Positions 5,564-53,390 are shown, numbered from the stretch's first letter. The stretch: DNA of 64,000 bases from Thermoanaerobaculia bacterium (GCA_044869805.1 JBIOXV010000005.1:64034-128033), one strand, 5' to 3'. Notes: a model not told the origin generated them from the sequence alone. Numbers and translations: made by a program.

Positions 5564-5576
5564 ACACGGGAAGCAG

Positions 5577-7289: not shown

Positions 7290-7360
7290 CTCGCCGCTTT
7301 CGCCAGGCTGGCCCGCGCCCCGCGGCAGGGGGCACGAGAGATGCAAGCTAGAATCCCCCC

Positions 7361-8986: not shown

Positions 8987-8998
8987 GAGAAGCTGCGC

Positions 8999-9274
8999 AT
9001 GACGACCATCCGTAACACTGGCCGCAAACCGGTCCGCGTACCGCTGCCGCTGGGCAAGTCCCTCTTTCTCGGCCCCGGCAAGAGCGGGCAGATCACCGAT
9101 CACGCCGTCGACCATCCGGGAGTGCAGAAGCTGCTCGCGGCGGGTGAGATCGAGGTCTCCACCGAGGCCCAGCACGGGCAGCGGCCCGAGGGCACCGGCG
9201 GCGGTGGCCACCCGGCCACCCACGGGCACGTGCCCACCACGCAGGCACCGCGCCGCGGCGATCGTGGCGGCTGA
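8999..9274 (+). CDS. Small hypothetical protein (91 aa)
   Basis: Good SD (AGGAGAAG) 7 nt upstream of the ATG. Structured N-terminal 50 aa, then a low-complexity tail. No family recognised. Confidence 0.35.
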   Translation: MTTIRNTGRKPVRVPLPLGKSLFLGPGKSGQITDHAVDHPGVQKLLAAGEIEVSTEAQHGQRPEGTGGGGHPATHGHVPTTQAPRRGDRGG

Positions 9275-9338
9275 GGCGGAAGCCGAGCCCGCACCCACGG
9301 CCGGGCACTAGACTAGGGCGCACTCCTTCGGAGGTGCC

Positions 9339-10088: not shown

Positions 10089-10250
10089 TCCTCGGGCTGC
10101 AAGGGACTGGCGACTCCATCCATCTTTTTCTAACAGGCCATGGACCTGGTCATATACCGGCAACTCTCCTGTCGGAAGGCTCTGATTGATGTCCGTCTAA
10201 GGGACTTGGATTGAGTCGAGCACTGGCCCGACGGACCAAAGGAGAGCCGG

Positions 10251-10931
10251 ATGAGAACCGAACGAAGAGTCTCGGCGGCGGGTGTCGCGCTAACGCTGAT
10301 CCTCTCGATGCTGGCAGCCTCTGAGGTTGGCGCAGAGGTCACGCTGACCCCGCGACAGGACGAAATCAAAGACAGCGAAGACAGCGCGCAGGACGCCGCT
10401 TCCCCCGAGGAACTCGCCCAAAAGGAGGCCGCTCTGAACAGCTTCCTCGGCTTCGACTGGAGCGCTGGGATCGCGGTCACTGGCGACTTCACCAGCGAGC
10501 GCCGGATCGACGACGCTGAGCTGGTGAATGGCGTAGTGCGGGTCAAGGACGAGTCTCGATATCTGCCCCGCATCATGCTCGAAGCACACTACCTCTTCCG
10601 CTCCTGGGGAGATCAAAAGATCGACCGAGCCCTGCGAGCCGACGGCAAGACGTACTTCGTCACCAAGGGGCATGGGCCCTTCGTAGCGATTCAGTCGAGC
10701 GACAAGCAGGCCCTCGATTCTTTCGCCGCGGGCTACCTCTTCGGCTGGCGTCCAGACTCTACCAAGGAATGGTCATTCGTCATGGGGGCCGGAGCGGTTC
10801 TCGATCCCAACGTTCAGATCCTCGGTGACGGGATCCAGGCCAACCAGGCGCTCCCCGAAGGAGAGACGGCGATCCGGTACAAGAAAGTGGACCGCTGGGG
10901 CTGGATGCTGATGTTCTCGTTCAAGCTCTGA
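10251..10931 (+). CDS. Secreted hypothetical protein, lower GC than the surroundings
   Basis: AAGGAGAG RBS. Signal peptide (LTLILSMLAASEVGAEV). C-terminus ends in aromatic-rich ...MLMFSFKL. GC is about 58% against a roughly 70% background. Confidence 0.6.
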   Translation: MRTERRVSAAGVALTLILSMLAASEVGAEVTLTPRQDEIKDSEDSAQDAASPEELAQKEAALNSFLGFDWSAGIAVTGDFTSERRIDDAELVNGVVRVKDESRYLPRIMLEAHYLFRSWGDQKIDRALRADGKTYFVTKGHGPFVAIQSSDKQALDSFAAGYLFGWRPDSTKEWSFVMGAGAVLDPNVQILGDGIQANQALPEGETAIRYKKVDRWGWMLMFSFKL

Positions 10932-11009
10932 GGCCGGGCGCCATCTGCTGCCGTCGGCCCTTGCCTCCTTACGAGCGGGGCGATACTCTCTCCGCCGTAA
11001 GGAGGAATC

Positions 11010-11306
11010 ATGGCGGTCAGCACTCTCACCTCCAAAGGTCAGCTCACCGTCCCACGAGAGGTCCGGGAACGGCTTGGGGTTTCGCAAGGCGACCGGATCA
11101 CTTTCCGCTTCGACGAGCATGGACGGCTGTTCCTGGAGCCGGAGAAGACCAGCGAGGGCCCGAGGATCTCTGGTCTGCTCCGACATCTGGCTCCCAGTCG
11201 CGCCGTGACCGTCGAGGAGATGGACGAGGGCATCGCCGAGTACGTGTCTCTCAAGGCCGAGGCGATTCGCACGAAGGGACGCTTCGATCCCGAGACGGAC
11301 GTTTGA
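11010..11306 (+). CDS. vapB: Type II antitoxin, AbrB/MazE/SpoVT family (VapB-like)
   Basis: N-terminal swapped-hairpin motif MAVSTLTSKGQLTVPREVRERLGV. Overlaps the downstream PIN gene start by 1 nt. Confidence 0.8.
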   Translation: MAVSTLTSKGQLTVPREVRERLGVSQGDRITFRFDEHGRLFLEPEKTSEGPRISGLLRHLAPSRAVTVEEMDEGIAEYVSLKAEAIRTKGRFDPETDV

Positions 11307-11704
11307 TGATCGCCGTCGACACCAACGTCCTGCTGCGCCTTCTGATCCATGACGACGCCCGCCAGAAGGAGACTGTCGATCGCTTGCTGCAAGCTGCGCG
11401 GGAGCAGGGTGAGGTTTGCTTGGTGAGCAACCCGGTCCTCTGCGAGATCGAATGGGTCTTGACGAGGACCTATCGCGCAAAGCGCAGGGACTGCGCGGTC
11501 GCGTTCCAAGGGTTGCTCGAAGATCCCTTCTTCGTCTTCGAGGATCGCAGTGCCGTCGGCCGGGCGCTGGTCCTCTTTCAAGAAGGCAGAGCCAGCTTTG
11601 CGGACTACCTGATCGGCGAGATCGGACAGACACAGGAAGCGCGGACGACTCTTACGTTCGATCGCGACCTGGCTGGTCATCCGGGGTTCACGGTACTCGG
11701 TTGA
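11306..11704 (+). CDS. vapC: PIN-domain ribonuclease toxin VapC
   Basis: MIAVDTNVLLRLL... with the acidic PIN residues (D5, E, D near the C-terminus). The ATG at 11306 overlaps the vapB stop (TGATG). Confidence 0.8.
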   Translation: MIAVDTNVLLRLLIHDDARQKETVDRLLQAAREQGEVCLVSNPVLCEIEWVLTRTYRAKRRDCAVAFQGLLEDPFFVFEDRSAVGRALVLFQEGRASFADYLIGEIGQTQEARTTLTFDRDLAGHPGFTVLG

Positions 11705-11757
11705 CCGCTGCGCCATCTCTCAACCCTCACCCAAACTCCGATGCCCAGGAGACTTCC

Positions 11758-13500
11758 ATGCCTCGAGCCCCTCGGCCCCCCGCTTTACTGTTCCTCGCTC
11801 TGCTCCTCGGCACGGTGATGCCAGCCGGCGCTGAAGGGCCAGCGGACCTCCGCTTCAGCGTCACCTACGACGCCGCGCTCTCCTCGGCGCCGCTCGACGG
11901 GCGGCTGCTGTTGCTGATCGCGAAGCAAGCCGAGCCCGAGCCGCGGCTGCAAGTGGCGGCGGGAGTGCGCGCGATCGAGGTGCTGGGGATCGACGTCGAC
12001 GGCTGGAAGGCGGGCGAAGCCGCGGTGATCGACGGAGGCGTGTTCGGCTACCCCGTGGCGAGCCTCGCGGACCTGCCGGCCGGGGACTACTCCGTGCAGG
12101 CGGTGCTCCACCGCTACGAGACCTTCCGCCGCGCCGACGGCCACGCGGTGAAGCTGCCCATGGACCGCGGCGAGGGCCAGCACTGGAACCTGGCACCGGG
12201 CAACCTGCTTTCGCAGCCGATGCCCGTCAAGCTCGACCCGGCGAAGGGCGGCAACGTCGCCGTGAAGCTCTCCTCCGCGATCCCGCCGATCGAGCCGCCT
12301 AAGGACACCAAGTATGTCCGCCACCTGAAGATCCAGAGCAAGCTGCTCTCCGACTTCTGGGGCCGGCCCATGCACCTGGGCGCGCACGTGCTGGTGCCGG
12401 AGGGCTTCGACGATCACCCGGAGGCGCGCTACCCGCTGATCGTCTTCCACGGCCACTTCCCGGAGGACTTCGGCGGCTTCCGCGAGGAGCCGCCCGACCC
12501 CAACCTGGAGCCGGACTACAGTGAGCGCTTCGGAATCCACGGCTACAACCGCATCCAGCAGCAGGAGGCTCATGCCTTCTTCAAGCAGTGGACAAGCCCC
12601 GGCTTTCCGCGTCTGCTGATCGTCGAGATCCAGCACGCCAACCCCTACTACGACGACTCTTACGCCGTGAACTCGGCCAACCTCGGGCCCTACGGTGACG
12701 CCATCAACCACGAGCTGATCCCGGAGATCGAGCGCCGCTTCCGGGGCCTCGGCGAGGGCTGGGCGCGCTTCACCTACGGCGGCTCGACCGGCGGCTGGGA
12801 GGCGCTGGCGACGCAGGTCTTCTACCCCGAGATGTACAACGGCTGCTTCGCCGCCTGCCCCGACCCGATCGATTTCCGCGCCTATACGCAGGTCAACGTC
12901 TACGAGGACGACAACGCCTACTACCGCCGCGGCCCCTTCGCCACCGTCAAGCGCCCCGGCCACCGCAACTACCTGGGCCAGGTGGACGTCACGCTCGAGG
13001 ACTACAACCACCTGGAGCTGGTGCTGGGCGAGAAGAGCCGCTCCGGCGACCAGTTCGACATCTGGGAGGCGGTGTACTCGCCGGTCGGGCCGGACGGCTA
13101 CCCGAAACGCATCTGGGACAAGCGCACCGGCGTGATCGACAAGGAGGTCGCGGCCCACTGGCGCGAGCACTACGACCTGCGCCACATCCTGGAACGCGAC
13201 TGGGCCAAGCTGGGGCCGAAGCTCACGGGCAAGATCCACGTCTACTGCGGCGACATGGACAACTACTACCTCAACAACGCCGTCTACCTGATGGAGGACT
13301 TCCTGGAGAAAACCACCGAGCCGTACTACGGCGGCGAGGTGGACTACGGCGACCGCGCCGAGCACTGCTGGAACGGCGATCACGCGAACCCCAACTACCT
13401 CTCCCGGCTGCGCTACAACACCCTGTACGTGCCGAAGATCCTGAAGCGCATCGAACAGAGCGCGCCGGCGGGCGCGGACCTCAAGAGCTGGAGGTACTGA
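11758..13500 (+). CDS. Secreted alpha/beta-hydrolase esterase (enterochelin-esterase-like / putative esterase family)
   Basis: Start chosen at MPRAPRPPALLFLALLLG (signal peptide), in frame within the longer track ORF. Esterase-family core FHGHFPEDFGG ... YGGSTGGWEALATQVFYPEMYNGCFAACPD. Confidence 0.75.
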   Translation: MPRAPRPPALLFLALLLGTVMPAGAEGPADLRFSVTYDAALSSAPLDGRLLLLIAKQAEPEPRLQVAAGVRAIEVLGIDVDGWKAGEAAVIDGGVFGYPVASLADLPAGDYSVQAVLHRYETFRRADGHAVKLPMDRGEGQHWNLAPGNLLSQPMPVKLDPAKGGNVAVKLSSAIPPIEPPKDTKYVRHLKIQSKLLSDFWGRPMHLGAHVLVPEGFDDHPEARYPLIVFHGHFPEDFGGFREEPPDPNLEPDYSERFGIHGYNRIQQQEAHAFFKQWTSPGFPRLLIVEIQHANPYYDDSYAVNSANLGPYGDAINHELIPEIERRFRGLGEGWARFTYGGSTGGWEALATQVFYPEMYNGCFAACPDPIDFRAYTQVNVYEDDNAYYRRGPFATVKRPGHRNYLGQVDVTLEDYNHLELVLGEKSRSGDQFDIWEAVYSPVGPDGYPKRIWDKRTGVIDKEVAAHWREHYDLRHILERDWAKLGPKLTGKIHVYCGDMDNYYLNNAVYLMEDFLEKTTEPYYGGEVDYGDRAEHCWNGDHANPNYLSRLRYNTLYVPKILKRIEQSAPAGADLKSWRY

Positions 13501-20025: not shown

Positions 20026-21372
20026 CTAGAGTAGGCCGCAACGTTTAATCTCCAGGTAGCGGTTGACCATGGCGACCGGCAGCTTCTCGGGCTCGACGTC
20101 CAGGGTGAGGACGCCCAGGCCGCGCACCTGCTCGTGGGCGCGCTCGCGGGCCGCCAGGTACTGCCGGCAGGCGGCCACGAAGAGGGCGTCCTCGAGCTTT
20201 CCGATCGGCCCCGCCGCCGCGGCCGCGAGCGCCGACTCGCGCAGGCTGGCGAGCAGCACCAGGTGGCGCTGCGAGAGGAGCTTCAGGGCCGGCAGCAGCT
20301 CGCTCGCGTCCTCGTCGCGCAGGTTGGAGACCACCACTACCAGGGCGCGGCGGCGCTCGAGCGTCGCCAGCCGCACCGCCGCGGCCGCGTAGTCGGGCGG
20401 CTCCGCCGAGGTCTGGAGGTCGTAGACCGCGGCCAGCAGCCGCGCGATGGCCGCCGGCCCTTTGGCGGGCGGCACCCACCGCGGCTCGCCGCTGAAGGTG
20501 GCGAGGCCCACGGCGTCGCCGTAGCGCGTGGCGGCGTAGGCCAGCAGCAGCACGGCGTTGAGCGCGTGGTCGAAGTGGGCGAGGTCACCCTCGCGGGCGC
20601 GCATCCGGCGCCCGCAGTCGACCATGAACACCACCCGCTGGTCGGTCTCGTCGTGGAAGTCGCGGGTGATCGGCTTGCCGCGCCGCGAGGTCGCCTTCCA
20701 GTCGATCTGGCGCAGCGAGTCGCCCTGCCGGAAGTCGCGCAGCTCGCGGAACTCGCGGCCCTCGCCGCGGCGCTCGCGGTGGCGGATGCCCATCCGCGCC
20801 AGCCGGTCGTCGACCGCCAGGTGGGCGTAGCCGAGCAGGGGCCGGAAGTTGGGCAGCACCCGCACCACCTGCGCGGCCCCCGCCCACCTGCGGCGCCGCC
20901 ACAGGCCGAGGGGCGAGGCGAGCAGCAGCTCGGTGGCGCCGAAGGCGGCGTCGCCGCGCTCGAGGGGCCGCACCTGGTACTCGAGCTCGACCCATCCGCG
21001 GGCCGGCACCGCCGTCGCCCGCGGCAAGCCCTCGAGCTCGGAGGCGGGCGGGTAGTGATCGAAGACCGCGAGCGCCACCGGCCGCCGGCCGGGGTTGTCG
21101 ATCTTGAGCCGCACCCGGGTGGGCACCCCGAGGGGCACCGCCCCCGCCACCTGCCGCTCGACCCGGGGCGTGCGCGTGCGGCCCACCCACAGCGCGTCGG
21201 CGACGGCGAGCGCGGCCAGGGCGCCGCCGGCCGCCAGCCAGGCCGGCGCGAAGGGCGCGGGAGCGAACGCCGCCGCCAGCCCGGCGGCGAGCCAGACAGC
21301 GGCGCCCGCCAGGGCGCGCGGCGCAGGCGTCAGGGCCGGCCGGCCGGCCACGGCCGGCGCCACCGTGCTCAC
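20026..21372 (-). CDS. DUF58 domain protein (VWA-like, MoxR partner)
   Basis: FRELRDFRQGDSLRQIDWKATSRRGKPITRDF...VVFMVDCGRRM is the DUF58 signature. The GTG start overlaps the MoxR stop (GTGA). The Arg-rich N-terminal extension in the track is rejected. Confidence 0.8.
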   Translation of the reverse strand: MSTVAPAVAGRPALTPAPRALAGAAVWLAAGLAAAFAPAPFAPAWLAAGGALAALAVADALWVGRTRTPRVERQVAGAVPLGVPTRVRLKIDNPGRRPVALAVFDHYPPASELEGLPRATAVPARGWVELEYQVRPLERGDAAFGATELLLASPLGLWRRRRWAGAAQVVRVLPNFRPLLGYAHLAVDDRLARMGIRHRERRGEGREFRELRDFRQGDSLRQIDWKATSRRGKPITRDFHDETDQRVVFMVDCGRRMRAREGDLAHFDHALNAVLLLAYAATRYGDAVGLATFSGEPRWVPPAKGPAAIARLLAAVYDLQTSAEPPDYAAAAVRLATLERRRALVVVVSNLRDEDASELLPALKLLSQRHLVLLASLRESALAAAAAGPIGKLEDALFVAACRQYLAARERAHEQVRGLGVLTLDVEPEKLPVAMVNRYLEIKRCGLL

Positions 21373-22364
21373 TGGCGGGGCGCCTCCACCGCGGCGAGCA
21401 CGCCCTCGATCGCCCGCGCCGCGGTGTAGCCCTCGATCTCCATCTCCGGCGACACGATCACACGGTGCACGAGGGCCGCCGCCGCCAGCTCCTTGACGTC
21501 GTCGGGAACCACGAAGTCGCGGCCCGCGAGCACCGCCCGGGCACGCGCCGCGCGCACCAGGGCGATCGCCCCGCGCGGGCCGGCGCCGACCCGCAGGCCC
21601 GGCCACGAGCGGGTGGCGCGGGCGATCTTCACCGCGTAGTCGACGATGCGCTCGTCCACCTGCACCCGCGCCACGAGCTGCTGGATCGCCACCACCTCGG
21701 CCGGCGTGGTCACGGTGTCGACCGCCGAGACGTCGAGGCGGTCGCCCACCCGGCCGGCCGTCACCTGCCGTACCAGGGCCACCTCGTCGCTCTCGCTCGG
21801 GTAGTCGACAGCGATCTTGAGCAGGAAGCGGTCCACCTGCGCCTCGGGCAGCGGGTAGGTACCCTCCTGCTCGATCGGGTTCTGGGTGGCGAGGGTCATG
21901 AACGGCGGCGGCAGCAGGAAAGAGCGGCCCTCGATCGACACCTGCTGCTCCTGCATCACCTCGAGCAGGGCCGCCTGGGTCTTGGCCGGCGCGCGGTTGA
22001 TCTCGTCGGCCAGCAGCAGGTGGGTGAACACCGGCCCGCGGCGGATCTTGAACTCGCCGCTCTTCATGTCGAAGAGGGTGTGGCCGGTGATATCGGCCGG
22101 CATCAGGTCGGGGGTGAACTGGATGCGCGCGAACTGCCCGCCGAAGGTCTTGGCCAGGGCCAGCACCAGGAGCGTCTTGCCCAGGCCGGGCACGCCCTCG
22201 ACCAGCACGTGGCCGGCGGCGAGGAAGGCCACCAGCACCTGCTCCAGGGCCGCCTCCTGCGCCACTACCGCCTTCGCCACCTCCTGGCGCATGCGGGTGG
22301 CGACCGCCGCCGCCTGCTCGAAGCCGAGCTCCGTGGCCGCGCCGGCCGTCGCTTCGCTGCTCAT
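21369..22364 (-). CDS. MoxR-family AAA+ ATPase
   Basis: Walker A GVPGLGKT, Walker B LLADEINRA, and the MoxR C-terminal region. Start at MSSEATAG overlaps the upstream stop (ATGA). The 720-aa track ORF is a read-through artefact. Confidence 0.85.
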   Translation of the reverse strand: MSSEATAGAATELGFEQAAAVATRMRQEVAKAVVAQEAALEQVLVAFLAAGHVLVEGVPGLGKTLLVLALAKTFGGQFARIQFTPDLMPADITGHTLFDMKSGEFKIRRGPVFTHLLLADEINRAPAKTQAALLEVMQEQQVSIEGRSFLLPPPFMTLATQNPIEQEGTYPLPEAQVDRFLLKIAVDYPSESDEVALVRQVTAGRVGDRLDVSAVDTVTTPAEVVAIQQLVARVQVDERIVDYAVKIARATRSWPGLRVGAGPRGAIALVRAARARAVLAGRDFVVPDDVKELAAAALVHRVIVSPEMEIEGYTAARAIEGVLAAVEAPRQ

Positions 22365-23524
22365 AAGGGCCTCCGTAGGCGTTCCAGGGTCTCGATCATG
22401 CGCGTGAGGTCGTGCGGCCGCCCGGGCACGGCGCCGCCGAGCGCCCAGGCCACGGTCTCGCCCGGCAGCTCGGCGAGGGCGGCCAGCTTCTCCACCTTGG
22501 CACGGCTCGGCATCCTGGCGAAGCCCGGGAAGCGCACGCCGGCGCGCTTCAAGAGCGCCTGGCGCGAGCTCTCGACCAGCGAGCCGGCCTCGCCCTGCCG
22601 CCACAGGAACTCGGCCGAGGCGCGGATGTGCTCGATCAGGCTGCGGCGGGCGCGCGACGGGACGGGCAGCAGGGGCCCGAAGCGCGCTGCCCGCCGCCAC
22701 AGCCAGAAGGCGAGCAGCACGGCGCCGGCCGCCACCGCCCGCCAGCCGTGGCGCCAGAGCAGGGCGCCGAGCGTGGGGTACTGGAGCCACCGCACCAGGC
22801 GCGCGGACACCGGCTTGCCTGCCACGGTGACCGCCGACCAGAGGAAGGCGGCGTGCTCGTATTCGCCGAGCCTGGCGTTCGAAGGCAGGCCCGGGTCGGA
22901 GAGGATCGCCACCCAGCCGCTGCCGTGCGGCTTGCGGATCAGCAGGTGACCGTCCTCCCCGCCGGGGCCGGACACGAAGTAGTCGGGGTCGGCGGCGTCC
23001 GGCGCCGGTTCCTCGTCGTACTCGGGGACCAGCAGCCGGTCCGCAGCCGCGATCGCGACCTCGAAGCTCTCGCCGGGCCTCGCCTCCAGCCGCTGCGGGC
23101 GGCCGAGGAGCTCCCAGGGCTGGTCTTCGATCGGCTCCTCGACCTGCACGACACCGAGCAGGCTCAGGAGGACGGGATCGGGCGAGGCCAGGAGATAGCC
23201 GCCCTCTTCCGCCCAGGCCAGCACCTCGACGGCCCGCTCGTGCGACAGCATCGGCCGCTCCGCCATCAGCACCAGCAGCCCGCCGGGCGGCGGCAGGGGA
23301 TCGACCTCCTCGGCCGACTCGGATGGCACTCCCATCGCGGTCAGGAAGCGCTGCGCGGCCAGCAAAGGGTCGCGGCGCGCCGCCTGCGACCAGCCCGTGC
23401 GGACGGTGCGCTCCACCGGCTCGAAGAGGAGGAAGAAGGCCGCCACCCCGAGGGCGGCCAGCAGGCCGAGTGCCGGCATCGAGGAAAGGCGCAGGCGCGC
23501 AGCGCGTCGAGGTTTCACTGCCAT
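22361..23524 (-). CDS. DUF4350 domain protein
   Basis: N-terminal TM. Its position between the DUF4129 protein and MoxR matches the conserved cluster. Confidence 0.65.
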   Translation of the reverse strand: MAVKPRRAARLRLSSMPALGLLAALGVAAFFLLFEPVERTVRTGWSQAARRDPLLAAQRFLTAMGVPSESAEEVDPLPPPGGLLVLMAERPMLSHERAVEVLAWAEEGGYLLASPDPVLLSLLGVVQVEEPIEDQPWELLGRPQRLEARPGESFEVAIAAADRLLVPEYDEEPAPDAADPDYFVSGPGGEDGHLLIRKPHGSGWVAILSDPGLPSNARLGEYEHAAFLWSAVTVAGKPVSARLVRWLQYPTLGALLWRHGWRAVAAGAVLLAFWLWRRAARFGPLLPVPSRARRSLIEHIRASAEFLWRQGEAGSLVESSRQALLKRAGVRFPGFARMPSRAKVEKLAALAELPGETVAWALGGAVPGRPHDLTRMIETLERLRRPL

Positions 23525-23531
23525 CGTTCAC

Positions 23532-25037
23532 TCATCCCGCGGCACCGGGCCCGAAGTGACGGCCGTAGCCGGCGCAGAGCGCGAGCATCTCCTCGCCGGC
23601 GAGCGGCCGGTGGGCGTAGGCCACGCCTTGCCAGGCGCGGGTCAGGCGAGCCAGCTCCTCCGACGCCCCGCGCGAGAGCTGGCGCGCCAGCCGGCGCAGG
23701 CACTCGCCCTCGGTCCAGCTCGGCTCGATCTCCAGCCGGCGGCGCACGGCGAGCGTCGCGAGCGCGCCCCGGTAGAGGAGCGACAGCGCCTCGGCCACCC
23801 GCCCGGCCTCGTAGCGCTGCCAGGCCTCGGCCGCGACGTCGGCCGGCAGCGGCTCGGGAGCCGGCGCGGCGCCGGAGGTGATCGGCGAGGGCACGGGAAG
23901 CGAGCCCTGCGCCGGGCCGCCGTCCATCAGGCCACTCCTGCGCAGCGCGTAGATGGCGAGCGCCGCGACCCCGGCCCCGGCCAGCAGCCACAGCGCGCTC
24001 TCGGCGAGCGGCCCCAGCCAATCGAGCTCGAGGCCCGGGCCGTTCGAGCGCTGCTCGTCGCTCTCGAACCGCCACTTCCAGCGCCGCACCGTGCGCTCGC
24101 GGCCGAAGTCGGGTGCTTCGAGCACGCGGTCGATCGCCTCTTTGGGCGTAGGGTCCGCCCCGGCGGCCGCGGCCGGCAAGCCGATGGCGAGGAGCAGCAG
24201 CGCGGCGGCGATTCCTTGCCGCGTCTGGGCTTGCCGCGTCTGGGCCTGCCGTGCCCTGCCCCGCCGCCCGCCGCCGGCCTCGTCCCGCAGCCGCCGCGCG
24301 AGGCGGCGGAAGGCGATCTCCACGTCCCAGCCCTCGAGGTCGGTGCGCCGGTTGAGGTAGAGCGTGAAGCCCGCCGCCACGTAGAACGGCTCGATCACGG
24401 TGAGGGAGGCAAACCCCAGGAGGCCCCAGAGCAGGTGGTAGGCGAGCGGCGCCTCACCGCCGTCGAGGTAGGTCCTGAAGAGCAGGCCCCAGTCCGGAGA
24501 CAGGCCCTCCGGCACCATGATCATGACGAAGGCGAAGAAGGCGAAGAACAGCAGCACCTGGGCCACGATGCAGGCGAAGGTCAGCAGCATCGCCTCCAGG
24601 TGCCCGGAGCGGTTGAGCACGCTCTGGCGCTGCCAGCGGGCCCGGCCGCCGAGCTCCTCGAGCAGGCGCACCGGCAGGTGGAACGAGCGGGCCGGGTCGA
24701 GGCGCTCGAGGCCCAGGTAGGCGGGCGCAACCTTGAGCCACGACCGCAGCGCGGCGCCGAGCGTGCCGCGCAGCGTGGGCTTCTCTCCGAACAGCGCCCG
24801 GCTGACCACGTGCAGGGGGATCACGTCGAGCAGCGGCCGCAGCCACCAGAGGATGGCAAAGGCCACCAGCGGCGCGCCGCGGGCGGCGAGGAGCACGCCG
24901 AGCCACAGCGGAAAGCCGACGGCGAGCCACGGTCCCCAGATCCGCCGCCCCCACGCCTGCACCAGCGTCAGGCCGAGGTCGATGGCCTCCCAGGGGCGCC
25001 GCGGGCGGATGGCGGCCGCCACCCGCTCAAGGTCCAT
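23532..25037 (-). CDS. Polytopic membrane protein with C-terminal DUF4129 domain
   Basis: Several TM helices. C-terminal DUF4129-like motif (TEGECLRRLARQ...WQGVAYAHRP). Contains an in-frame tandem 15-nt repeat (QTRQA x2). Confidence 0.65.
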   Translation of the reverse strand: MDLERVAAAIRPRRPWEAIDLGLTLVQAWGRRIWGPWLAVGFPLWLGVLLAARGAPLVAFAILWWLRPLLDVIPLHVVSRALFGEKPTLRGTLGAALRSWLKVAPAYLGLERLDPARSFHLPVRLLEELGGRARWQRQSVLNRSGHLEAMLLTFACIVAQVLLFFAFFAFVMIMVPEGLSPDWGLLFRTYLDGGEAPLAYHLLWGLLGFASLTVIEPFYVAAGFTLYLNRRTDLEGWDVEIAFRRLARRLRDEAGGGRRGRARQAQTRQAQTRQGIAAALLLLAIGLPAAAAGADPTPKEAIDRVLEAPDFGRERTVRRWKWRFESDEQRSNGPGLELDWLGPLAESALWLLAGAGVAALAIYALRRSGLMDGGPAQGSLPVPSPITSGAAPAPEPLPADVAAEAWQRYEAGRVAEALSLLYRGALATLAVRRRLEIEPSWTEGECLRRLARQLSRGASEELARLTRAWQGVAYAHRPLAGEEMLALCAGYGRHFGPGAAG

Positions 25038-26023
25038 GCCGTCTCCCGCCCAGGAGGAGATAGGCGGCCACCAGCGCCCACAGGGCCGCGCCCACGCCGT
25101 AGCGCACGCCGGGAGCCAGGGTCACGGTCGACGACCAGAAGGCCTCGATGAAGGCCGCGATCAGCAGCATGATGGTGAGTCCGTAGAGCAGCGGCACGGC
25201 GCCGTGCGCCGCCTCGAGGATCGAACGGCCGCGCGTCAGGCGCCCCGGCGCCAGCAGGGCCAGGCCGAGGCGCAGGCCGGCGGCGCCGGCGAGCACGATC
25301 GCCGTCAGCTCGAAGGCACCGTGGGCGATCACGAACGGGTAGAAGGTCTCGCCCAGGCCAGCGTTGCCCAGGTGGCCGGCTACGGCGCCGATCACCAGGC
25401 CGTTGTAGACCAGGATGAAGACGGCGCCGATGCCCGCCACCAGACCGCTGGCGAAGGTACGGAAGGCGATCGAGATGTTGTTGTAGACGTAGCCGCCGAA
25501 CATGCCGAAGTCCGTCGCCGCCGGCCGCGACTCTTGCGACTCGGGGTCGTACATTTCCTCGAAGGCGGCGGTCTGCGCCGGGCCGAGAATCGAGTAGGCG
25601 AGGTCGGGCTCGAGCCGCACGCCGACCGCGGTGGCGAGCAAGGTGCCGAGGAAGAGCGCCGCGGCGACCCCCACCAGCTTCGCCTCCCGCCGCACGTGGC
25701 GTGGGAACTCGCGGGTGATGAAGCGCCCGATCCGCTCCCAGCTCGCGCCGCGGGCGCTCGCGTAGAGCTGCTGGTGGCCGCGCAGCGCCAGCCGGTTCAG
25801 GCGCTCCTCGAGGTCGCCGCCGTAGCGGCGGGCGCGCGCCAGCGCGAGCTGGTGGCAGAGCCGGCGATAGAGCTCGGGGAGCGCCGCCGCCGCGGCCTCG
25901 CCGGAAGCGGCACCACGGGTACCGCCGGCGGCGCGGGGCCTGCTGCCCTCCAGCCGGCTGAGCAGGGCCTCCAGCCGCTGCCAGCCGCCGGCGTGCCGCT
26001 CCACGAACTGGTCGCGGTTCAAC
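25027..26023 (-). CDS. Stage II sporulation protein M-like (DUF95) membrane protein
   Basis: SpoIIM/DUF95-type TM core (FITREFPRHVRREAKL...IAFRTFASGLVAGIGAVFILVYNGLVIG...). TTG start overlapping the RDD stop (TTGA) is proposed. The longer 583-aa track ORF has an Arg-rich artefactual N-terminus. Confidence 0.6.
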
Positions 26024-26726
26024 GCCGCCCCACCAGCCAGTTGGCGGCGCCGACGAGCCGCGCCAGGCCCTCGTCGCCGCGCGCGCCGGTCAACGGTGCG
26101 GCGAGGTCGGCGAGCTCCTGCGCCCGCTCTTCCGACCAGCGGGGAAGGCGGTGTGCGAAGTCGGTGATCGCCTTCTGCTCGGCGGCGGCCAACGGCACCG
26201 GCGGCGCCCAGGCGCGGGCACCGGCGAGCGGCGCCGGCGCAGCCTCGCGCTCCCGGTGCACCACAAGGGTGCCGGCGGCATGGTCGCCGAGCCGCTTGAA
26301 GTCGCGCGAGGCGAGCATCGAGAGCAGGCCGAGCCCATAGGCGACGGGCAGGAAGTCCGCGGCGAGCAGCAGATTGCGCAGCACAGAGGCGGTCCAGGAG
26401 ACGGGCGTACCGTCGTCGTGGAGGACCACCAGCCCCAGCGCGCGCTTGCCGGGCGTCGCGCCGGCCCACAGCACCTCGAAGAGCACGGGGTAGAACCACT
26501 CGCCCAGGAAGAGGAAGAGCAGAAAGAGTCCGCGGCCCACGTTGCCGAGCACCTCGAGAGCGGTGGCGAGCAGCGCGTAGCCCACCAGCCGGATCACCAG
26601 ATCGACGCCGCTGGCGAGCAGGCGCGCAGGGAACCCGGCGACCCGCAGACCCAGCTCGACGCCCTCCGGGGTCTCGATGGCGCGGTACGTATCCAACATA
26701 TTTTTCGAAGATCGTGACTCTAGCAC
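26019..26726 (-). CDS. RDD-family membrane protein
   Basis: RDD-type motif (LVIRLVGYALLATA...). First gene of the MoxR cluster. Confidence 0.7.
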   Translation of the reverse strand: MLESRSSKNMLDTYRAIETPEGVELGLRVAGFPARLLASGVDLVIRLVGYALLATALEVLGNVGRGLFLLFLFLGEWFYPVLFEVLWAGATPGKRALGLVVLHDDGTPVSWTASVLRNLLLAADFLPVAYGLGLLSMLASRDFKRLGDHAAGTLVVHREREAAPAPLAGARAWAPPVPLAAAEQKAITDFAHRLPRWSEERAQELADLAAPLTGARGDEGLARLVGAANWLVGRR

Positions 26727-26755
26727 CCCGCGATGTCAACGCCGCTCGCGGCTCT

Positions 26756-27604
26756 ATGATTGGCGCCTCCATGAGCACCGGCGGCGTGAGCGCGATCGAG
26801 GTCCGGGACCTCCGGAAGACCTACGCGGGAGGCGTCGAGGCTGTTCGCGGCATCTCCTTCTCCGTGCGCCAGGGCGAGGTATTCGGCCTGCTGGGACCGA
26901 ACGGTGCCGGCAAGTCGACGACCATCCGCATCCTCACCACCCTCGCGCACGCGACCGCCGGCAGCGCCCGGGTCGCCGGCTTCGACGTCGGGACCCAGGG
27001 CCGCGAGGTGCGGCGGGCGATCGGCTACGTGGCCCAGACCTCCGGGGTCGACGGCCTGGCGACCGGCCGCGAGAACCTGATGCTCCAGGGCCGTCTCTTC
27101 CACCTGCCGGCGGCCGAGATCGCCGCCCGCACGCGCAAGCTCCTGGCCCTCTTTCGACTCGACGACGCGGCCGACCGTTTAGCGCAGACCTACTCCGGCG
27201 GCATGAAGCGGCGCCTCGACGTGGCCATGGGCCTGATCCACCGGCCGCAGGTGCTGTTCCTGGACGAGCCCACCACCGGGCTCGACCCCGAGAGCGCCGG
27301 CTTCTCGAGCGCCTTGGCGCTCCTCACCCGCCGCCAGGAGATCATCATCGCCGCCTCCAACTTCACGCTCACGCCGATGATCTTCTCCTCGAGCATGCTG
27401 ATGTCCCAAGACCTGATGCCGGCCTGGCTCAAGGCCGTGGCGCGCATCAACCCCGTCGAGTGGGCGGTGATCGCGGCGCGCAACGGCTACGAAGGCCGCG
27501 CTCCCGGCCAGACCGCCTTCTTCCTGCTGCTCTCGGCCGGCTTCGCGCTAGCCTGCGGCGCCTTCGCCACGCGGGCCTTCGTGCGCTACCAGCGGTCGAT
27601 GTAG
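26756..27604 (+). pseudogene. ABC-transporter remnant: ATPase N-terminal half fused in frame to the C-terminal helices of an ABC-2 permease
   Basis: Walker A GPNGAGKST, signature YSGGMKRRLDVA, and Walker B VLFLDEPTTGLDPESAG are present. The D-loop, H-loop and C-terminal domain are missing. The sequence then continues directly into a permease C-terminus (PMIFSSSMLMSQDLMPAWLKAVARINPVEWAVIAARN...). Confidence 0.55.
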
Positions 27605-27683
27605 GGCCTCCGGAGACGAGGCTACGAACGAATGTGCTAGCGTTCGTTCTTTCGCGACAGATTTCCTCCCTACGGAGGTCACG

Positions 27684-28517
27684 ATGACCGAGAAGCGCGC
27701 AGCCGGCGCCCCCGCGCCCCCACCGCGTCCGGTCGCGGCTCACGTCGAGGCCGCAATGGGGCGGCGGATCCAGGCCAAGGCCGCGGGGCAGGAGAAGACA
27801 CAGTCCGTGCAAGCCGCCGCGGCCCACGTGCAGCGCGCGATCTCGGCCGCCGCTCAGGCAAGGTTGCCGCACCAGGAAAGGGCGGCGCCGACGAGGACCC
27901 CTTCCCCCCACGTCCAGCGCGCGACCGCGCCGCCCCAGCCCAGGTTCGGCACCGCGGCGAGCGTTCAGCCAACGGCGGGCGGCTCCGCGCGATCGCTTGC
28001 GCCCCATCGCCAAGTGCAACCTCTGCCTGTCCGGTCAGCCGGAACCGTCCAGAGGGCACAAAAGCCTAGCTGGGACGAGTTCACCAACAAAGGAAGCAAA
28101 GCGCCGCCAAAGGTGGCGTCGGTGCCATCAAAACACAACCTAAACGCAAAAGACAAAGAGTATTCTCGACTGGCGCGGGATCTGCTGAAAGCTTATGCAG
28201 CAATGACTGACGCAATGATCGACGCGGCCCTAAAAGTGGAATTGAAAGAAGACGAAATGGGCAAGTACAATGCCCAGAGCACGGCCCTGGAAACGGATAG
28301 ACACAACATTGCGGAGGCTTTGGACGCCTATTTCGGCGGGGACGAGTGGGATGGGCAGAAATACGCCGTGCTGGAGGGCATCAACGTATACGGCGAGGAG
28401 TTCAATACCCTCAGGCTCCGCGCGGGCAGCCCTAACGACAGCGATTTCCTTGGCTGGAAGGCCCTCGTGAACCTGCTGAGATTGGTCAAGAGGGGGGAAG
28501 GAAAGTGGATTAGCTAG
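27684..28517 (+). CDS. Hypothetical protein with an abrupt internal GC shift
   Basis: GGAGG 5 nt upstream. The N-terminal 125 aa are an Ala/Pro/Gln-rich low-complexity region at about 72% GC. The C-terminal 150 aa (from about nt 28050) are a Lys/Asp-rich helical domain at about 50% GC. No family recognised. Confidence 0.55.
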   Translation: MTEKRAAGAPAPPPRPVAAHVEAAMGRRIQAKAAGQEKTQSVQAAAAHVQRAISAAAQARLPHQERAAPTRTPSPHVQRATAPPQPRFGTAASVQPTAGGSARSLAPHRQVQPLPVRSAGTVQRAQKPSWDEFTNKGSKAPPKVASVPSKHNLNAKDKEYSRLARDLLKAYAAMTDAMIDAALKVELKEDEMGKYNAQSTALETDRHNIAEALDAYFGGDEWDGQKYAVLEGINVYGEEFNTLRLRAGSPNDSDFLGWKALVNLLRLVKRGEGKWIS

Positions 28518-28591
28518 GGAGCGGATTGAGAGTCAGCGCCCCCACCTTTTCCCCGGCGCGCCCACAGGCTTCGTTCACGCTCTCGAGAAAC

Positions 28592-28609
28592 GGGGCTCTC
28601 GCGAGCCCC
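28592..28609. terminator. Stem-loop between convergent genes (GGGGCTC-tcgc-GAGCCCC)
   Basis: 7-bp GC stem seen in the sequence. Weak U tract on the minus side only. Confidence 0.3.
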
Positions 28610-28635
28610 ACTTCGCATGGCGGAAAGGATCAAAC

Positions 28636-29250
28636 CTAGTACAGGTCCTGGATTCCCGCGCGGTCGTCGTTGGCGAGCGACGCGGGGCCGTTGTTGCAGG
28701 CGGAGACCGAGGGATACATGGTGGCGCCGGAGACGCCGGAGTGGCCGAGGCCCAGCAGGTGGCCGACCTCGTGGGTGTGGATCGCCTCGGTGTAGAACTC
28801 GTTCGAGCAGCTCTCGCCCAGCGACGCCCAGGCGTGCTGCCGGTTGGTGACGATGTCCGCGTCGGTGATGCGGTAGGTGCCGTTCGGGCGCTGCGTGTAG
28901 AAGCCGGTGAAGGTGGCCGCCAGGCAGTTGTTGCGGCAGGCGCCGGTCGGGTCCTGGAAGTTGAGCATCGGGCGGCCGTCGCCCAGCGAGAAGCCGGAGA
29001 TCGAGCCGACGGTGGCCGACAGGCGGGTGCCGGTGCCGGCGCTGTTCCAGGCGAGGATGGCGTTGCGCGTGCGGGTGCGGCCAAGGTCGCCGTCGGTGAT
29101 CGAGGAGTTGCCGCGGCTGTCGACGACGACGTTGGGCGGGCTGTCCCAGGTGCGGCGCGGGGACAGCAGGACGTAGCCCAGCGCGCTGCCGGCCGCCAGC
29201 GTGGCGACCACCGCGAGGGCGAGAAGCGTGCGGATCTTCAGGTTGTTCAT
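28636..29250 (-). CDS. Secreted metzincin (matrixin/M10-like) zinc metalloprotease, minimal catalytic domain
   Basis: Signal peptide. HTHEVGHLLGLGHS is the HExxHxxGxxH motif. A downstream Met-turn (GATMYPS) is present. Confidence 0.8.
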   Translation of the reverse strand: MNNLKIRTLLALAVVATLAAGSALGYVLLSPRRTWDSPPNVVVDSRGNSSITDGDLGRTRTRNAILAWNSAGTGTRLSATVGSISGFSLGDGRPMLNFQDPTGACRNNCLAATFTGFYTQRPNGTYRITDADIVTNRQHAWASLGESCSNEFYTEAIHTHEVGHLLGLGHSGVSGATMYPSVSACNNGPASLANDDRAGIQDLY

Positions 29251-29271
29251 GGTCTTTTGCCCCCTCGTGGA

Positions 29272-29826
29272 TTAGTACTCGAGGCGGCCGGCGCGCCGGG
29301 CCTCAGCAAGGATCGAGTCCTTGAGGTCAGTGAGCAGCACGGTCTTCGCCGCCGGGGCCGGGCGGCCGTCCGGGAACAGCAGGCGGCCGCCGTCGTCCAC
29401 CGTGGGCACGGCCCACTCGAAGCCGGAACGGTCCATCACCAGCCGGAAGTGCCCCTGCTGGTAGCCGGCCACCTTGGCCACGCCGTCCTGCTCGCGCTCC
29501 AGGAACAACAGCACACGCTCGTTGGCGCCGAACCTGGGGAAGCCGTGCGCCTCCACGGTATAGCCGTCCACCGTGCCCCCCCAGGTCTTGACCCGGACCT
29601 GTGAGCCGGGATCGCCCAGCACCGCCTCCTCCACCTCGATCACCGCCTCCGAGACGATGACGCGCCCCTCCGCATCCCAGAACGAGTGCACCTCGAGCAC
29701 CTTGCCCTGCACGATGGCCGCCGCGTCCCGAACCAGCTCCGCGCGCGACATCGCGAGGAAGGTCGAGGCCGTGGCGGGCAAAGCCGCCAGCAGAGCCACG
29801 AGGCAGACTACCGACCAACGCTTCAT
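29272..29826 (-). CDS. Secreted hypothetical protein (184 aa) immediately upstream of the metzincin
   Basis: Start at MKRWSVVCLVALLAALPATAS (signal peptide), inside a longer artefactual track ORF. 21-nt gap to the protease gene. Confidence 0.6.
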   Translation of the reverse strand: MKRWSVVCLVALLAALPATASTFLAMSRAELVRDAAAIVQGKVLEVHSFWDAEGRVIVSEAVIEVEEAVLGDPGSQVRVKTWGGTVDGYTVEAHGFPRFGANERVLLFLEREQDGVAKVAGYQQGHFRLVMDRSGFEWAVPTVDDGGRLLFPDGRPAPAAKTVLLTDLKDSILAEARRAGRLEY

Positions 29827-29990
29827 GAACGACCTCCTTACGCCTCGATCCGAGGCGACACCAGGCCGCTGACCACCAGCGGCCCGATCAGATCCAGGAT
29901 GTGGGGGCTCGAAAGATGTCGGCCTACGAGGGGAGGTGTCCGGCCGGGGTGGAGTGTGACACCCCGGCCGGAGCAGGGGCGGCGAAATCG

Positions 29991-30593
29991 CTACGGCGTG
30001 CGGTCGATGCGCTGGCGCACCGGGTCCGGAATCACGAAGCAGCCGGCGGCGTCGCTCGAGAAGACGACGAAGGAGTCGGCCAGGAACAGGTTGACGCCGT
30101 GCTGGTAGGTGCACTCGACGTAGACGTCGAGGCCCGGGTTGAACGGCGTGCCGCCGTAGTTGTACACCCGCCCCGGAACGCTGTAGACGATCACCCCGCC
30201 CGGAGACGTGGTCACCCCGGTGTTGGGGGCGGCGTCCCATTCCTTGCCCTTGAGCTGCCAGTGATCTCCAGGCACGCAGCAGTCGGAGATGTGGAAGTCG
30301 ACGAAGGTTCCGGCGCCGCAGATGATGCGGAAGCCCTGCACTTCGGCGGGCCCGGCCGAGCGGCAGATCCACTGCTCTCTCCACTGCACCGCCGGGTCGA
30401 GAATCGGGAAGGGGATGCCGGGGAATGGGTTCGGCCCGATAGCGTCCTTGACCGCCGTCGAGAGTGCCGCGTCCACCGACGTGGCATCCTTCGCGTAGTT
30501 GGGCGAGTTCAGAGGGTCCGGCGGCGCGGCGAAGGCCGGGGTTGCGAGAGCCAGGACGAGCAGGCAGAGCAGAGCGAGAGTGCGCTTCGACAT
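29991..30593 (-). CDS. Secreted Cys-rich hypothetical protein (200 aa)
   Basis: Signal peptide MSKRTLALLCLLVLALATPAFA. Seven Cys in the mature part. No family recognised. Confidence 0.6.
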   Translation of the reverse strand: MSKRTLALLCLLVLALATPAFAAPPDPLNSPNYAKDATSVDAALSTAVKDAIGPNPFPGIPFPILDPAVQWREQWICRSAGPAEVQGFRIICGAGTFVDFHISDCCVPGDHWQLKGKEWDAAPNTGVTTSPGGVIVYSVPGRVYNYGGTPFNPGLDVYVECTYQHGVNLFLADSFVVFSSDAAGCFVIPDPVRQRIDRTP

Positions 30594-30781
30594 TGCAGGT
30601 CTCCTTTCGTGAGTTAGCCGGTCAGCAACCGGCGTTGGCCCCTATCTCTCGTAGTACCAGAGACAGAAGAAATGTAGACGAGCGGCTTTTCGCATGAGCG
30701 TTACACATATATGAAACGCAGGAGGCGACAAAAAGAGCCATAATTCGCCGACGGTGATCAGGGAAAGCGAGCTACAATCGT

Positions 30782-30793
30782 GAAAACGTTTTC
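30782..30793. promoter_or_regulatory. 12-nt palindrome GAAAACGTTTTC in the divergent MarR promoter region
   Basis: Perfect inverted repeat about 80 nt upstream of the MarR GTG start, in an AT-richer intergenic region. Confidence 0.25.
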
Positions 30794-30872
30794 CTTGAGA
30801 GCCGGGCGTATGGGCCGACCTGAAGTCCAGGTGGAGCGCTGAGCGCGCGCCCTCTCTTATTCGGAGTCCGAA

Positions 30873-31541
30873 GTGAGCCAGCCAGACTCGCAGCCGCTGA
30901 CTTCCGTTCCCGCCGTCCACTCCACGGGTGCGCGCGTGGCGGTTGGCCTGGCGAAGATCGGGATGGTCCTCCGCAGCCATGCCTGGCAGGAGGGCTTTGC
31001 GCAGGACCTCACACCCACTCAGGGCCAGGTTCTGGCTCACCTCGAGCGCCAGCCTGGCCTGACCCTCAACCAGGTCGCCGACGGGCTCGGCGTGCGCGCC
31101 TCCACGGCCTCCGAGGCCGTGGGCGTGTTGGAAAAGAAGGGGCTGGTCATCAAGCAGCGCCCGCTCGAGGACGCGCGGCGCCTCTCGCTGTCGCTCACCG
31201 AGGCCGGCAAGCGGGAGGCCGCCCGCGTCGCCACCTGGCCGGATTTTCTGGCGCAGGTGGTCGAAGGCCTCTCCGAGGAGGAGCAGGGCGTGCTGCTGCG
31301 CCTGGTGCAGCGCATGATCCGCGAGCTGCAGCTCCGGGGCGAGGTCCCGGTGAGCCGCATGTGCTCGACCTGCCGGTACTTCCGCCCCTATGTCCACGAC
31401 GACGCCCGCAACCCCCACCACTGCGCCTACGTGAACCTGCCGTTCGGCAACCCTGACCTGCGCATGGACTGCCCCGAGCAGGATCCGGCGACGGGTGCCG
31501 AGGCGGACGCCGCCTGGGAGCGCTTCGCTGGCGTCGGCTAG
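30873..31541 (+). CDS. MarR-family regulator with C-terminal Cys/His-rich extension
   Basis: MarR wHTH (LTPTQGQVLAHLERQPGLTLNQVADGLGVRASTASEAVGVLEKKGLV). C-terminal 60 aa contain C-x2-C ... HHC ... C (CSTCRYF...HHCAY...MDCPE). Confidence 0.75.
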   Translation: MSQPDSQPLTSVPAVHSTGARVAVGLAKIGMVLRSHAWQEGFAQDLTPTQGQVLAHLERQPGLTLNQVADGLGVRASTASEAVGVLEKKGLVIKQRPLEDARRLSLSLTEAGKREAARVATWPDFLAQVVEGLSEEEQGVLLRLVQRMIRELQLRGEVPVSRMCSTCRYFRPYVHDDARNPHHCAYVNLPFGNPDLRMDCPEQDPATGAEADAAWERFAGVG

Positions 31542-36575: not shown

Positions 36576-36827
36576 ATGGAAATCGCACGGATCACCACCA
36601 AAGGTCAGGTCACCATCCCAAAGGCGATCCGCGAGCGGCTGCGGGCCAAGCAGGGCGACTTGCTGGTGTTCGAGCTGACGGACAAGGGTGGGGTTACCCT
36701 GCGCGCCGTAGAGCAGAAGCCGCTGGCAGAGCTCTACGGAGCCCTGGCGGCGACTCGTCCGTTTCCCGGGAAGGCAGCCGTCCGCGACGAGGTGGGCAAG
36801 AAGCTGGGTGAGCGGCGGCGGCGATGA
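36576..36827 (+). CDS. vapB: Type II antitoxin, AbrB/SpoVT family (VapB)
   Basis: MEIARITTKGQVTIPKAIRERL... 4-nt overlap with the downstream PIN gene. Confidence 0.8.
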   Translation: MEIARITTKGQVTIPKAIRERLRAKQGDLLVFELTDKGGVTLRAVEQKPLAELYGALAATRPFPGKAAVRDEVGKKLGERRRR

Positions 36828-37231
36828 ATCGGCTGTGGGTCGATGCCAATGTCCTGCTCCGCTACCTGACGGGAGAGCCTCCAGCTCAAGCGGCAAGGGC
36901 GGCGCGTCTGATGGCGCGAGCCGAGGCCGGTGACGTGAGCATCTATGTCGCCCCGCTGGTGCTGGCGGAGGTGGTGTGGGTGCTCAAGTCCTTCTACGGG
37001 CATCCCATGACGGTGATCCGGGAGACCCTCGTGCCCCTGGTCGGCGCCCCGGGGATCGAGGTGGACGACGTCGCGATCGTGGTCGAGGCCCTGGAGCTGG
37101 CCGCCGACCGCAACGTGGACTTCATCGACGCCTTCCTCGCCGTCCAGGCCGCCGCGGCCGGCGAAACCGTCTGCACCTTCGACGTCAAGGACTTCAGACG
37201 CCTTCCTGCGACCTGGGTCGCCCCAGAGTAG
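36824..37231 (+). CDS. vapC: PIN-domain toxin VapC
   Basis: MNRLWVDANVLLRYL...FIDAFL PIN motifs. Confidence 0.8.
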   Translation: MNRLWVDANVLLRYLTGEPPAQAARAARLMARAEAGDVSIYVAPLVLAEVVWVLKSFYGHPMTVIRETLVPLVGAPGIEVDDVAIVVEALELAADRNVDFIDAFLAVQAAAAGETVCTFDVKDFRRLPATWVAPE

Positions 37232-51588: not shown

Positions 51589-51590
51589 GC

Positions 51591-53390
<1,800 letters not shown>

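Follow-up and report, generated by a model that had tools for sequence, protein, structure and literature searches.

An orphan gene with an internal GC break in a variable slot between an ABC transporter and an M10 peptidase gene of a Thermoanaerobaculia bacterium

Locus and gene call

We analysed a 64-kb stretch of DNA (the window; overall guanine-plus-cytosine (GC) content 71.2%) from an uncultured bacterium of the Thermoanaerobaculia, Acidobacteriota. It carries an open reading frame (ORF) for a protein of 277 amino acids (aa), inside which the GC content falls abruptly. The ORF lies between the remnant of an ABC transporter and the convergent gene of a secreted M10 peptidase, in a segment that the two closest relatives lack (Table 1). 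The break is explained mainly by the architecture of the protein, with codon usage contributing the smaller share (~25% synonymous), and neither half of the protein has a credible homologue in the databases searched.

Table 1. Features of the orphan-gene locus, in window coordinates (nucleotides, nt)
Feature	Position	Strand	Remarks
Degraded ABC transporter	26714–27604	+	N-terminal part of the ATPase fused, with the frame kept, to the C-terminal ~100 aa of the ABC-2 permease
Lineage-specific segment	27605–28635	.	1031 bp, from the ABC-permease stop to the M10 stop; core from junction alignment ~27619–28591
Terminator-like stem-loop	27626–27649	+	10-bp stem followed by UUU, 20 nt past the stop of the ABC remnant, inside the lineage-specific segment
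Shine–Dalgarno (SD) sequence GGAGG	27674–27678	+	may pair with CCTCC 27665–27669 (predicted pairing only)
Orphan ORF	27684–28517	+	277 aa; ATG start, stop codon included
N-terminal region	27684–28058	+	codons 1–125; GC 0.75; Ala/Pro/Arg/Gln-rich, basic
23-nt repeat, two copies	27823–27929	+	CCCACGTSCAGCGCGCGA..., encodes PHVQRA; 84 nt apart, 87% identity
Synonymous-site trough	27969–28298	+	codons 96–205; GC at third codon positions (GC3) 0.60, flanked by 0.87 upstream and 0.79 downstream
C-terminal segment	28059–28514	+	codons 126–277; GC 0.545; Lys-rich linker, then putative helices
GC-rich hairpin	28592–28609	.	GGGGCTC-TCGC-GAGCCCC
M10 (matrixin-type) peptidase, secreted	28636–29250	−	conserved convergent right flank

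Several features of the DNA point to a translated gene. The ATG start follows its SD sequence at a spacing of 5 nt. In the AT-rich part, the ORF frame is the sole one of the six without internal stops (the other five hold 3–8 each), and just 0.09% of nucleotide shuffles of these 158 codons at 55% GC remain open in frame (P ~0.0009). Frame openness means little in the GC-rich half, since three of the six frames lack stops there. For codons 1–95, however, the GC counts at codon positions 1, 2 and 3 (72, 62 and 83 of 95; position 3 against position 2, p = 0.0005) reproduce the genome's coding pattern, in which position 3 exceeds position 1 and position 1 exceeds position 2, and so support coding in the ORF frame. 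Codon-position periodicity is seen in both halves of the ORF. Other reading frames within the segment give Arg-rich shadows or short ORFs only, and Rfam and tRNA scans of the ORF region were empty. The protein and its DNA are identical on four independent contigs or assemblies, which excludes an assembly chimera or artefact.

In the leader, a predicted stem between CCUCC (27665–27669) and GGAGG (27674–27678) would occlude the ribosome-binding site; as a whole, the leader folds no better than shuffled sequences do (z = −0.9). The leader palindrome occurs just once in the window, so that it is not a repeated element.

A variable slot between conserved flanks

The locus was compared with 40 related loci, recovered from genomes and metagenomes and anchored on the M10 peptidase, and with further loci reached through M10 homologues. 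The closest species-level genome (L004) is collinear with the window. Window positions 23318–27295 and 27295–27604 match its ABC ATPase and permease genes, both of them intact (91% nucleotide identity), the DNA from 28636 onwards aligns to its M10 gene (86%), and at the site of the 1031-bp segment it has 51 bp. A second relative (L045), with nucleotide identities of 95% over the ABC remnant and 84% over the M10 region, also has intact ABC genes, and its slot holds 3982 bp with a gene for a patatin-like phospholipase of 1290 aa (7254–11126, minus strand; GC3 0.93, native-like), the product of which has hydrophobic segments. A third locus (L044), which has no ABC genes, carries an unrelated secreted protein of 309 aa (8681–9610, minus strand) convergent with M10. 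Neither the patatin gene product nor the 309-aa protein matched PADLOC, and in none of the 40 further related loci is there a gene related to the orphan ORF. By this comparison, the whole gene, including the N terminus that the preliminary description had taken to be native, is shown to be lineage-specific; since the two closest relatives lack the entire segment but have both flanks conserved, that N terminus is not native at this locus, and its GC3 of 0.82 is likewise below that of native genes. As judged from the aligned relatives, the ~50-bp spacer between the ABC permease and M10 genes acts as a micro-hotspot in this Thermoanaerobaculia lineage, being empty, filled with the patatin gene or filled with the orphan gene.

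The edges of the insert carry an imperfect duplication, GGAGACG on the left and GAGAAACG on the right, whereas L004 has the motif once only; GGAGACG/GAGAAACG is a weak candidate for a target-site duplication. Significant flanking repeats were not found around the insert. Identity to the relatives is mosaic across the slot (window 27191–27603 against 28635–29987: 95% and 84% for L045, 91% and 86% for L004), a pattern that suggests homologous recombination around it. On the right, the edge of the slot is marked by the GC-rich hairpin next to the M10 stop, probably the terminator of M10; L004 and L045 have retained an equivalent hairpin.

The flanks bear out the earlier placement of the gene between a degraded ABC transporter and a secreted protease operon, the latter encoding the M10 peptidase. 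On the left, a deletion of 904–928 bp (904 bp relative to L004), with its junction at 27295, has fused the two ABC genes into a chimeric ORF of 296 aa, in which residues 45–188 correspond to ABC_tran and residues 195–257 to the permease tail, so that the transporter is probably inactivated. The deletion junction lies just 310 bp from the insertion.

Size and make-up of the GC break

The abrupt internal change in composition was confirmed by a sliding-window profile, which is not uniform. The GC content is 0.749 over nt 1–375 of the ORF and 0.545 over nt 376–834, near the ~72% and ~50% first estimated, and the best change point falls at window nt 28012 (0.765 before against 0.553 after, z = 6.2). 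Windows of 150 nt drop from 0.74–0.78 to a minimum of 0.50. The lowest-GC 450-nt stretch of the window begins at 28061 and is the sole region below 0.58 (window mean 0.712, standard deviation 0.041). Among 1264 sliding windows of 834 nt, breaks with z of at least 6.2 occur at two places only, the ORF and ~59493. The latter and the next strongest break (~30801) both lie in gaps between likely genes, which leaves the break in the ORF as the sole intragenic one of its size in the window. The two clearest intergenic regions (30600–30850 and 59498–59690) fall to ~0.47–0.55 GC in their 71%-GC surroundings, and low GC alone therefore marks non-coding as well as foreign DNA here.

To separate amino-acid composition from synonymous choice, we used a native codon table built from 15 neighbouring genes (4307 codons), the GC3 of which spans 0.80–0.98 and is at least 0.88 in all except the genes of one MazE/PIN pair. 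The GC content predicted from the amino acids and native codon usage is 0.796 for codons 1–119 and 0.642 for codons 120–277, compared with observed values of 0.754 and 0.551. The predicted values thus attribute ~0.15 of the 0.20 GC difference, or about three quarters, to amino-acid composition. The predominant residues are Ala, Pro, Arg and Gln in the N-terminal half and Ala, Leu, Lys, Asp and Glu in the C-terminal half.

What is left lies at synonymous sites. The overall GC3 of the orphan ORF, 0.74, is the lowest among the ~43 likely genes of the window. The N-terminal half has a GC3 of 0.82 and the C-terminal half (codons 120–277) of 0.68, compared with ~0.94 in native genes; only 1.7% and 0.4%, respectively, of native windows of equal size are as low, and the few native windows with equally low GC3 are themselves over-extended 5′ ends. 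Along the gene, GC3 runs from 0.87 (codons 1–95) through 0.60 (codons 96–205) to 0.79–0.83 (codons 206–277). The profile is accordingly a trough and not a step, with a return to near 0.8 over the last ~70 codons. A cut at codon 110 separates 0.84 from 0.66 (Fisher p = 0.001), and the best GC3 change point lies at codon 102. A GC3 of 0.60–0.68 against ~0.94 in native genes fits DNA of short residence in a 71%-GC genome. The AT-rich part, which had been proposed to be a foreign module, is hence anomalous at synonymous sites (GC3 0.60 in the trough, 0.68 over the half) as that proposal would have it, but the break is not mainly one of codon usage.

Two observations on GC3 concern other genes of the window. 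Longest-ORF calls at 11416–11880, 21277–21606 and 51478–51732 are over-extended: their apparent 5′ GC3 collapses to 0.42–0.47, which places the true starts further downstream. The next-lowest GC3 nearby (0.80–0.86) belongs to the MazE-type antitoxin and PIN-domain toxin pair at 36576–37231, a value consistent with another mobile accessory module.

Two halves of the protein

The N-terminal region is strongly basic, with 17 Lys and Arg residues against 4 Asp and Glu, and is presumed to be a disordered tail. The HVQRA-like repeats described in it earlier are present: codons 1–125 hold three or four motifs of the form H/T-V-Q/E-R/A-A at a spacing of ~28 aa (AHVEAA, AHVQRA, PHVQRA and TVQRA), and the two copies of the 23-nt DNA repeat, which encodes PHVQRA, are spaced 84 nt apart. 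A lag of 84 nt is the top in-frame autocorrelation (p ~0.03 against codon shuffles), and the tail appears to have grown in part through duplication of an 84-nt unit. No similar DNA was found for the N-terminal part elsewhere in the 64-kb window or in the 40 related loci. A likeness of the motif to the 'VQR' leader of extracellular contractile injection system (eCIS)/DUF4157-type proteins was dropped, as there was no DUF4157 match and there were no injection-system genes.

For the C-terminal segment, single-sequence AlphaFold models of low confidence predict helices at residues ~155–184, 189–217, 222–245 and 253–270, that is, a putative helical hairpin (~155–217) followed by two or three more helices (~222–270). 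The mean predicted local distance difference test (pLDDT) score is 39.8 for residues 126–277 and 50.4 for residues 201–277, with no alignment behind either model. The 77-aa model of residues 201–277 has three helices, and a Foldseek search with it returned no match in the PDB below E = 4. A Lys/Asp-rich domain of ~150 aa without a known family, as first described, is thus present, its helicity being a low-confidence prediction.

Similarity searches returned nothing that can be called a homologue. When the C-terminal domain and the full protein were used in word-index searches of 5.8 billion clusters, only self-matches came back; the orphan protein is a singleton in ~15 billion proteins. Pfam, NCBIfam, PADLOC, PHROGs and PDB sequences yielded no significant match for either half, scans of metagenome and viral contigs with the ORF yielded nothing, and tblastn against phages and plasmids yielded nothing significant (best E-value 0.2). 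In an exhaustive phmmer search, residues 120–277 run against 1.84 billion representatives found themselves and three proteins with repeat-inflated scores (P0002, P0003 and P0004). P0002 is an internally repetitive, satellite-like translation; the scores of P0003 (DUF4214 repeats) and P0004 (Myb repeats) are raised by internal repeats; all three are treated as leads only. These searches did not find the C-terminal module on other N termini, a check proposed in the preliminary description, because they found no credible homologue at all.

Two of these leads bear on residues ~209–273. Residues ~209–246 (IAEALDAYFGGDEWDGQKYAVLEGINVYGEEFNTLRL) align with the DUF4214 (PF13946) repeats of P0003 at 38–44% identity over 36–43 residues, with an hhalign probability of 82% that is post hoc to a search of 1.84 billion sequences. 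The DUF4214 Pfam model, however, has no match to the orphan protein even at E ≤ 10, the library E-value of P0003 is inflated by its five tandem repeats, and an unrelated family, Myb/SANT, fits an overlapping stretch equally well. For Myb/SANT (PF00249), residues ~226–273 align with the repeats of P0004 at 39% identity (hhalign probability 81%, likewise post hoc), and W222, F240 and W258 stand at an 18-residue spacing (W-x17-F-x17-W). This aromatic spacing, as in Myb-type repeats, and the three-helix model at pLDDT 50 amount to a lead only. Against the likeness, Pfam again has no match at E ≤ 10, the confidence of the model is too low for a fold comparison and Foldseek was empty, and P0004 is a eukaryote-like repeat protein with a repeat-inflated score.

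Two smaller features lie in the AT-rich coding part. A sigma-70-like sequence, TTGAAA-18-TACAAT, falls within 28242–28271 and matches at 10 of 12 positions. A 12-nt in-frame tandem duplication at 28200–28225 (GCAATGACYGAC, 2.2 copies) encodes AMTD/AMID.

Origin of the gene and of the break

Taken together, these data lead us to read the ORF as a real, strain- or species-specific orphan gene, a recently gained accessory gene in a gene-turnover slot, with a probability of about 0.55 for this explanation as a whole. The ~1-kb segment occupies a small slot bounded on each side by the 3′ end of a conserved gene, the two genes being convergent, and the break inside it is shown to have two superimposed causes. 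First, a basic, presumably disordered tail of 125 aa rich in Ala, Pro, Arg and Gln calls for GC-rich codons, and a predicted helical domain of 150 aa rich in Lys, Asp, Glu and Leu for AT-rich ones. Second, the codon usage is un-ameliorated, GC3 being sub-native over the whole gene and lowest at codons ~96–205. We infer a gain in this lineage in preference to a loss in its relatives, a donor of lower GC content and a link between the insertion and the ABC deletion: the whole cassette may be a recent arrival, taken from an unsampled source of lower GC content and brought into the intergenic spacer by illegitimate recombination, and the same episode may have removed 0.9 kb of the adjacent transporter.

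Lineage-specific (ORFan) accessory genes populate chromosomal gene-turnover hotspots between conserved core genes. The locus resembles such hotspots in its conserved flanks, in a slot that in relatives is empty or holds a patatin or an unrelated secreted protein, and in the atypical codon usage of an orphan without homologues. It differs in that the islet is very small (one gene, ~1 kb), in having no integrase, tRNA or mobile-element signature and in that one alternative occupant, the patatin gene, is compositionally native. Of the marks expected of a foreign islet, two are seen here, namely absence from the closest relatives with the flanks conserved (84–95% nucleotide identity) and deviating codon usage (GC3 0.74 overall and 0.60 in the trough, compared with ~0.94); a donor or a homologue elsewhere did not appear in protein, metagenome, viral, phage or plasmid searches.

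Several points weigh against this explanation. With no donor or homologue found, composition and absence from the relatives are the two grounds for a foreign origin, and with no outgroup that has the same flanks, gain here is not formally separable from loss in the relatives. Codons 1–95, at a GC3 of 0.87, are just mildly below native genes and could come from high-GC DNA, and the native-like GC3 of the L045 patatin gene (0.93) means that variability of the slot need not imply distant transfer. No integrase or transposase is present, the window has no tRNA, and a clear target-site duplication is lacking. The low AlphaFold confidence makes the folded helical domain a prediction only. The ORF copies are 100% identical to one another, and a search for closer relatives through the M10 neighbour gave no variants for a ratio of non-synonymous to synonymous substitution (dN/dS). 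The gene call is a prediction from sequence features.

An unlikely alternative that still deserves attention, a relaxed form of the model in the preliminary description, is that the gene is a chimeric fusion, made before the cassette arrived or at its insertion, of a native or native-like high-GC piece (codons ~1–95) and a foreign low-GC module (~96–277). It would account for the significant change in GC3 within the gene (cut at codon 110, best change point at codon 102) and for a GC3 close to the native range in codons 1–95, and it accords with local repeat growth in the N-terminal part and with a recombination-prone site, as indicated by the adjacent deletion and the mosaic identity. Yet the N-terminal part is missing at the locus in all relatives, DNA resembling it occurs neither in the rest of the window nor in the 40 loci nor in the deleted ABC piece, the return of GC3 to ~0.8 in the last 70 codons describes a trough in place of two blocks, and the databases hold no protein with either half alone.

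It is improbable, in our estimate, that the ORF is over-extended, with only the AT-rich part translated (for example from GTG 28122 at codon 147, as ~131 aa), the GC-rich 5′ part an untranslated leader that is open by chance and the break a gene boundary. That GTG, with the SD-like motif AAAGGTGG upstream of it, could serve as an internal start, half of the six frames are stop-free in the GC-rich half, and other longest-ORF calls in the window are visibly too long at their 5′ ends. The best SD sequence nevertheless belongs to ATG 27684, and codons 1–95 have a coding-type periodicity with 83 of 95 at position 3, unlike the over-extended ends with their GC3 of 0.42–0.47; a 440-bp untranslated stretch at 75% GC would moreover be unlike the clearest intergenic regions (~0.47–0.55).

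We give similarly little credence to a non-functional ORF, a decaying remnant of inserted DNA without selective maintenance. Its singleton status, the absence of variants for a selection test among identical copies, the low structure confidence and an adjacent ABC transporter that is itself degraded would all suit a remnant. Against it stand the improbability of a 158-codon frame that stays open at 55% GC while the other five are closed, the strong SD sequence, and a GC pattern lowest at codon position 2 that, with the helical predictions, suits a normal protein.

A more specific scenario, which we regard as a long shot, is that of a newly assembled chimera arising in the recombination-prone intergenic slot, in which a basic, repeat-expanded disordered tail would have been joined to a captured low-GC fragment. 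The fragment would code for a small helical binding module not seen before, possibly similar to the three-helix units of Myb/SANT or DUF4214.

The early suggestion of an effector, toxin or immunity-type domain swap, considered here as a polymorphic toxin system, has very little probability left. The modular build, in which a distinct C-terminal domain follows a low-complexity N-terminal region, and a variable slot that in L045 holds a patatin-like phospholipase are what such a protein would lead one to expect; but there is no known trafficking, toxin or immunity domain such as LXG, PAAR, Rhs, WXG or DUF4157 (Pfam, NCBIfam, PADLOC and PHROGs), and the C-terminal domain recurs on no other N terminus among the 1.84 billion representatives. 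Nor is there a partner: in place of a same-strand immunity gene, the convergent M10 gene follows 118 bp past the stop, with no credible ORF between. Secretion-system genes and phage genes, those for tails included, were not seen in the annotated ±10 kb, in 10 further large ORFs of the window (Pfam) or with PADLOC, and the L045 patatin protein is itself without a PADLOC match.

Two sources of the DNA were tested and rejected. An inversion or rearrangement of the 0.9-kb deleted ABC piece gave Smith–Waterman scores within the range of shuffles on both strands. A duplicate of DNA from the window or the related loci was not found, blastn giving nothing (no match for the insert in the 40 loci) and tblastx giving uninformative GC-rich noise. 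De novo birth from local non-coding DNA is not indicated either, as the 51-bp spacer of L004 has no similarity beyond the junction motifs.

Possible function and significance

Neither a signal peptide nor a transmembrane segment nor a catalytic motif is present in the orphan product, the N terminus of which is net basic. These features point weakly to a cytoplasmic accessory factor in which a basic flexible tail and a small helical module bind nucleic acid or protein, and they suggest such binding in preference to an enzyme or a secreted toxin. Histone H1-like Ala/Pro/Lys tails occur on bacterial nucleoid-associated proteins, a resemblance that serves as a lead only. The orphan protein shares with them an Ala/Pro-rich, strongly basic, repeat-bearing tail on a small helical domain; its tail differs in being based on Arg, Gln and His instead of Lys and in being N-terminal, and no homology to any of their domains was found in Pfam, NCBIfam or PDB sequences.

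Orphan genes of atypical composition that sit in variable chromosomal slots are a well-known kind of feature, and the case alone has little weight: it adds one further singleton accessory gene, the break of which is largely a by-product of architecture. It does serve as a worked example in which an intragenic GC break is split into an amino-acid (~75%) and a synonymous (~25%) component, and it illustrates that a raw GC break is not to be taken straight as a domain swap. The micro-hotspot between the ABC-permease and M10 genes may be used for studying gene gain and loss in uncultured Acidobacteriota. If the newly assembled chimera outlined above were real, the protein would represent a new accessory factor of Acidobacteriota that binds DNA or protein, and the gene a datable bacterial example of gene birth by fusion. 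The micro-hotspot and the possible fusion-born gene are the only aspects worth more attention.

Neighbouring genes

Another lineage-specific gene is found at a distance of 1.5 kb, at 29991–30593 on the minus strand, within 29885–30920 and upstream of the pair formed by the M10 gene and a gene for a 184-aa unknown protein (p184). It is absent from L004 and L045, and its 200-aa product, which has a signal-peptide-like N terminus, matched neither Pfam nor PADLOC; its GC3 of 0.90 is native-like. The p184–M10 module itself is tandemly duplicated in several relatives from the Thermoanaerobaculia, with two p184–M10 pairs each in L005–L007 and L009, and L047 has an M10–M10 arrangement at 5001–6305.

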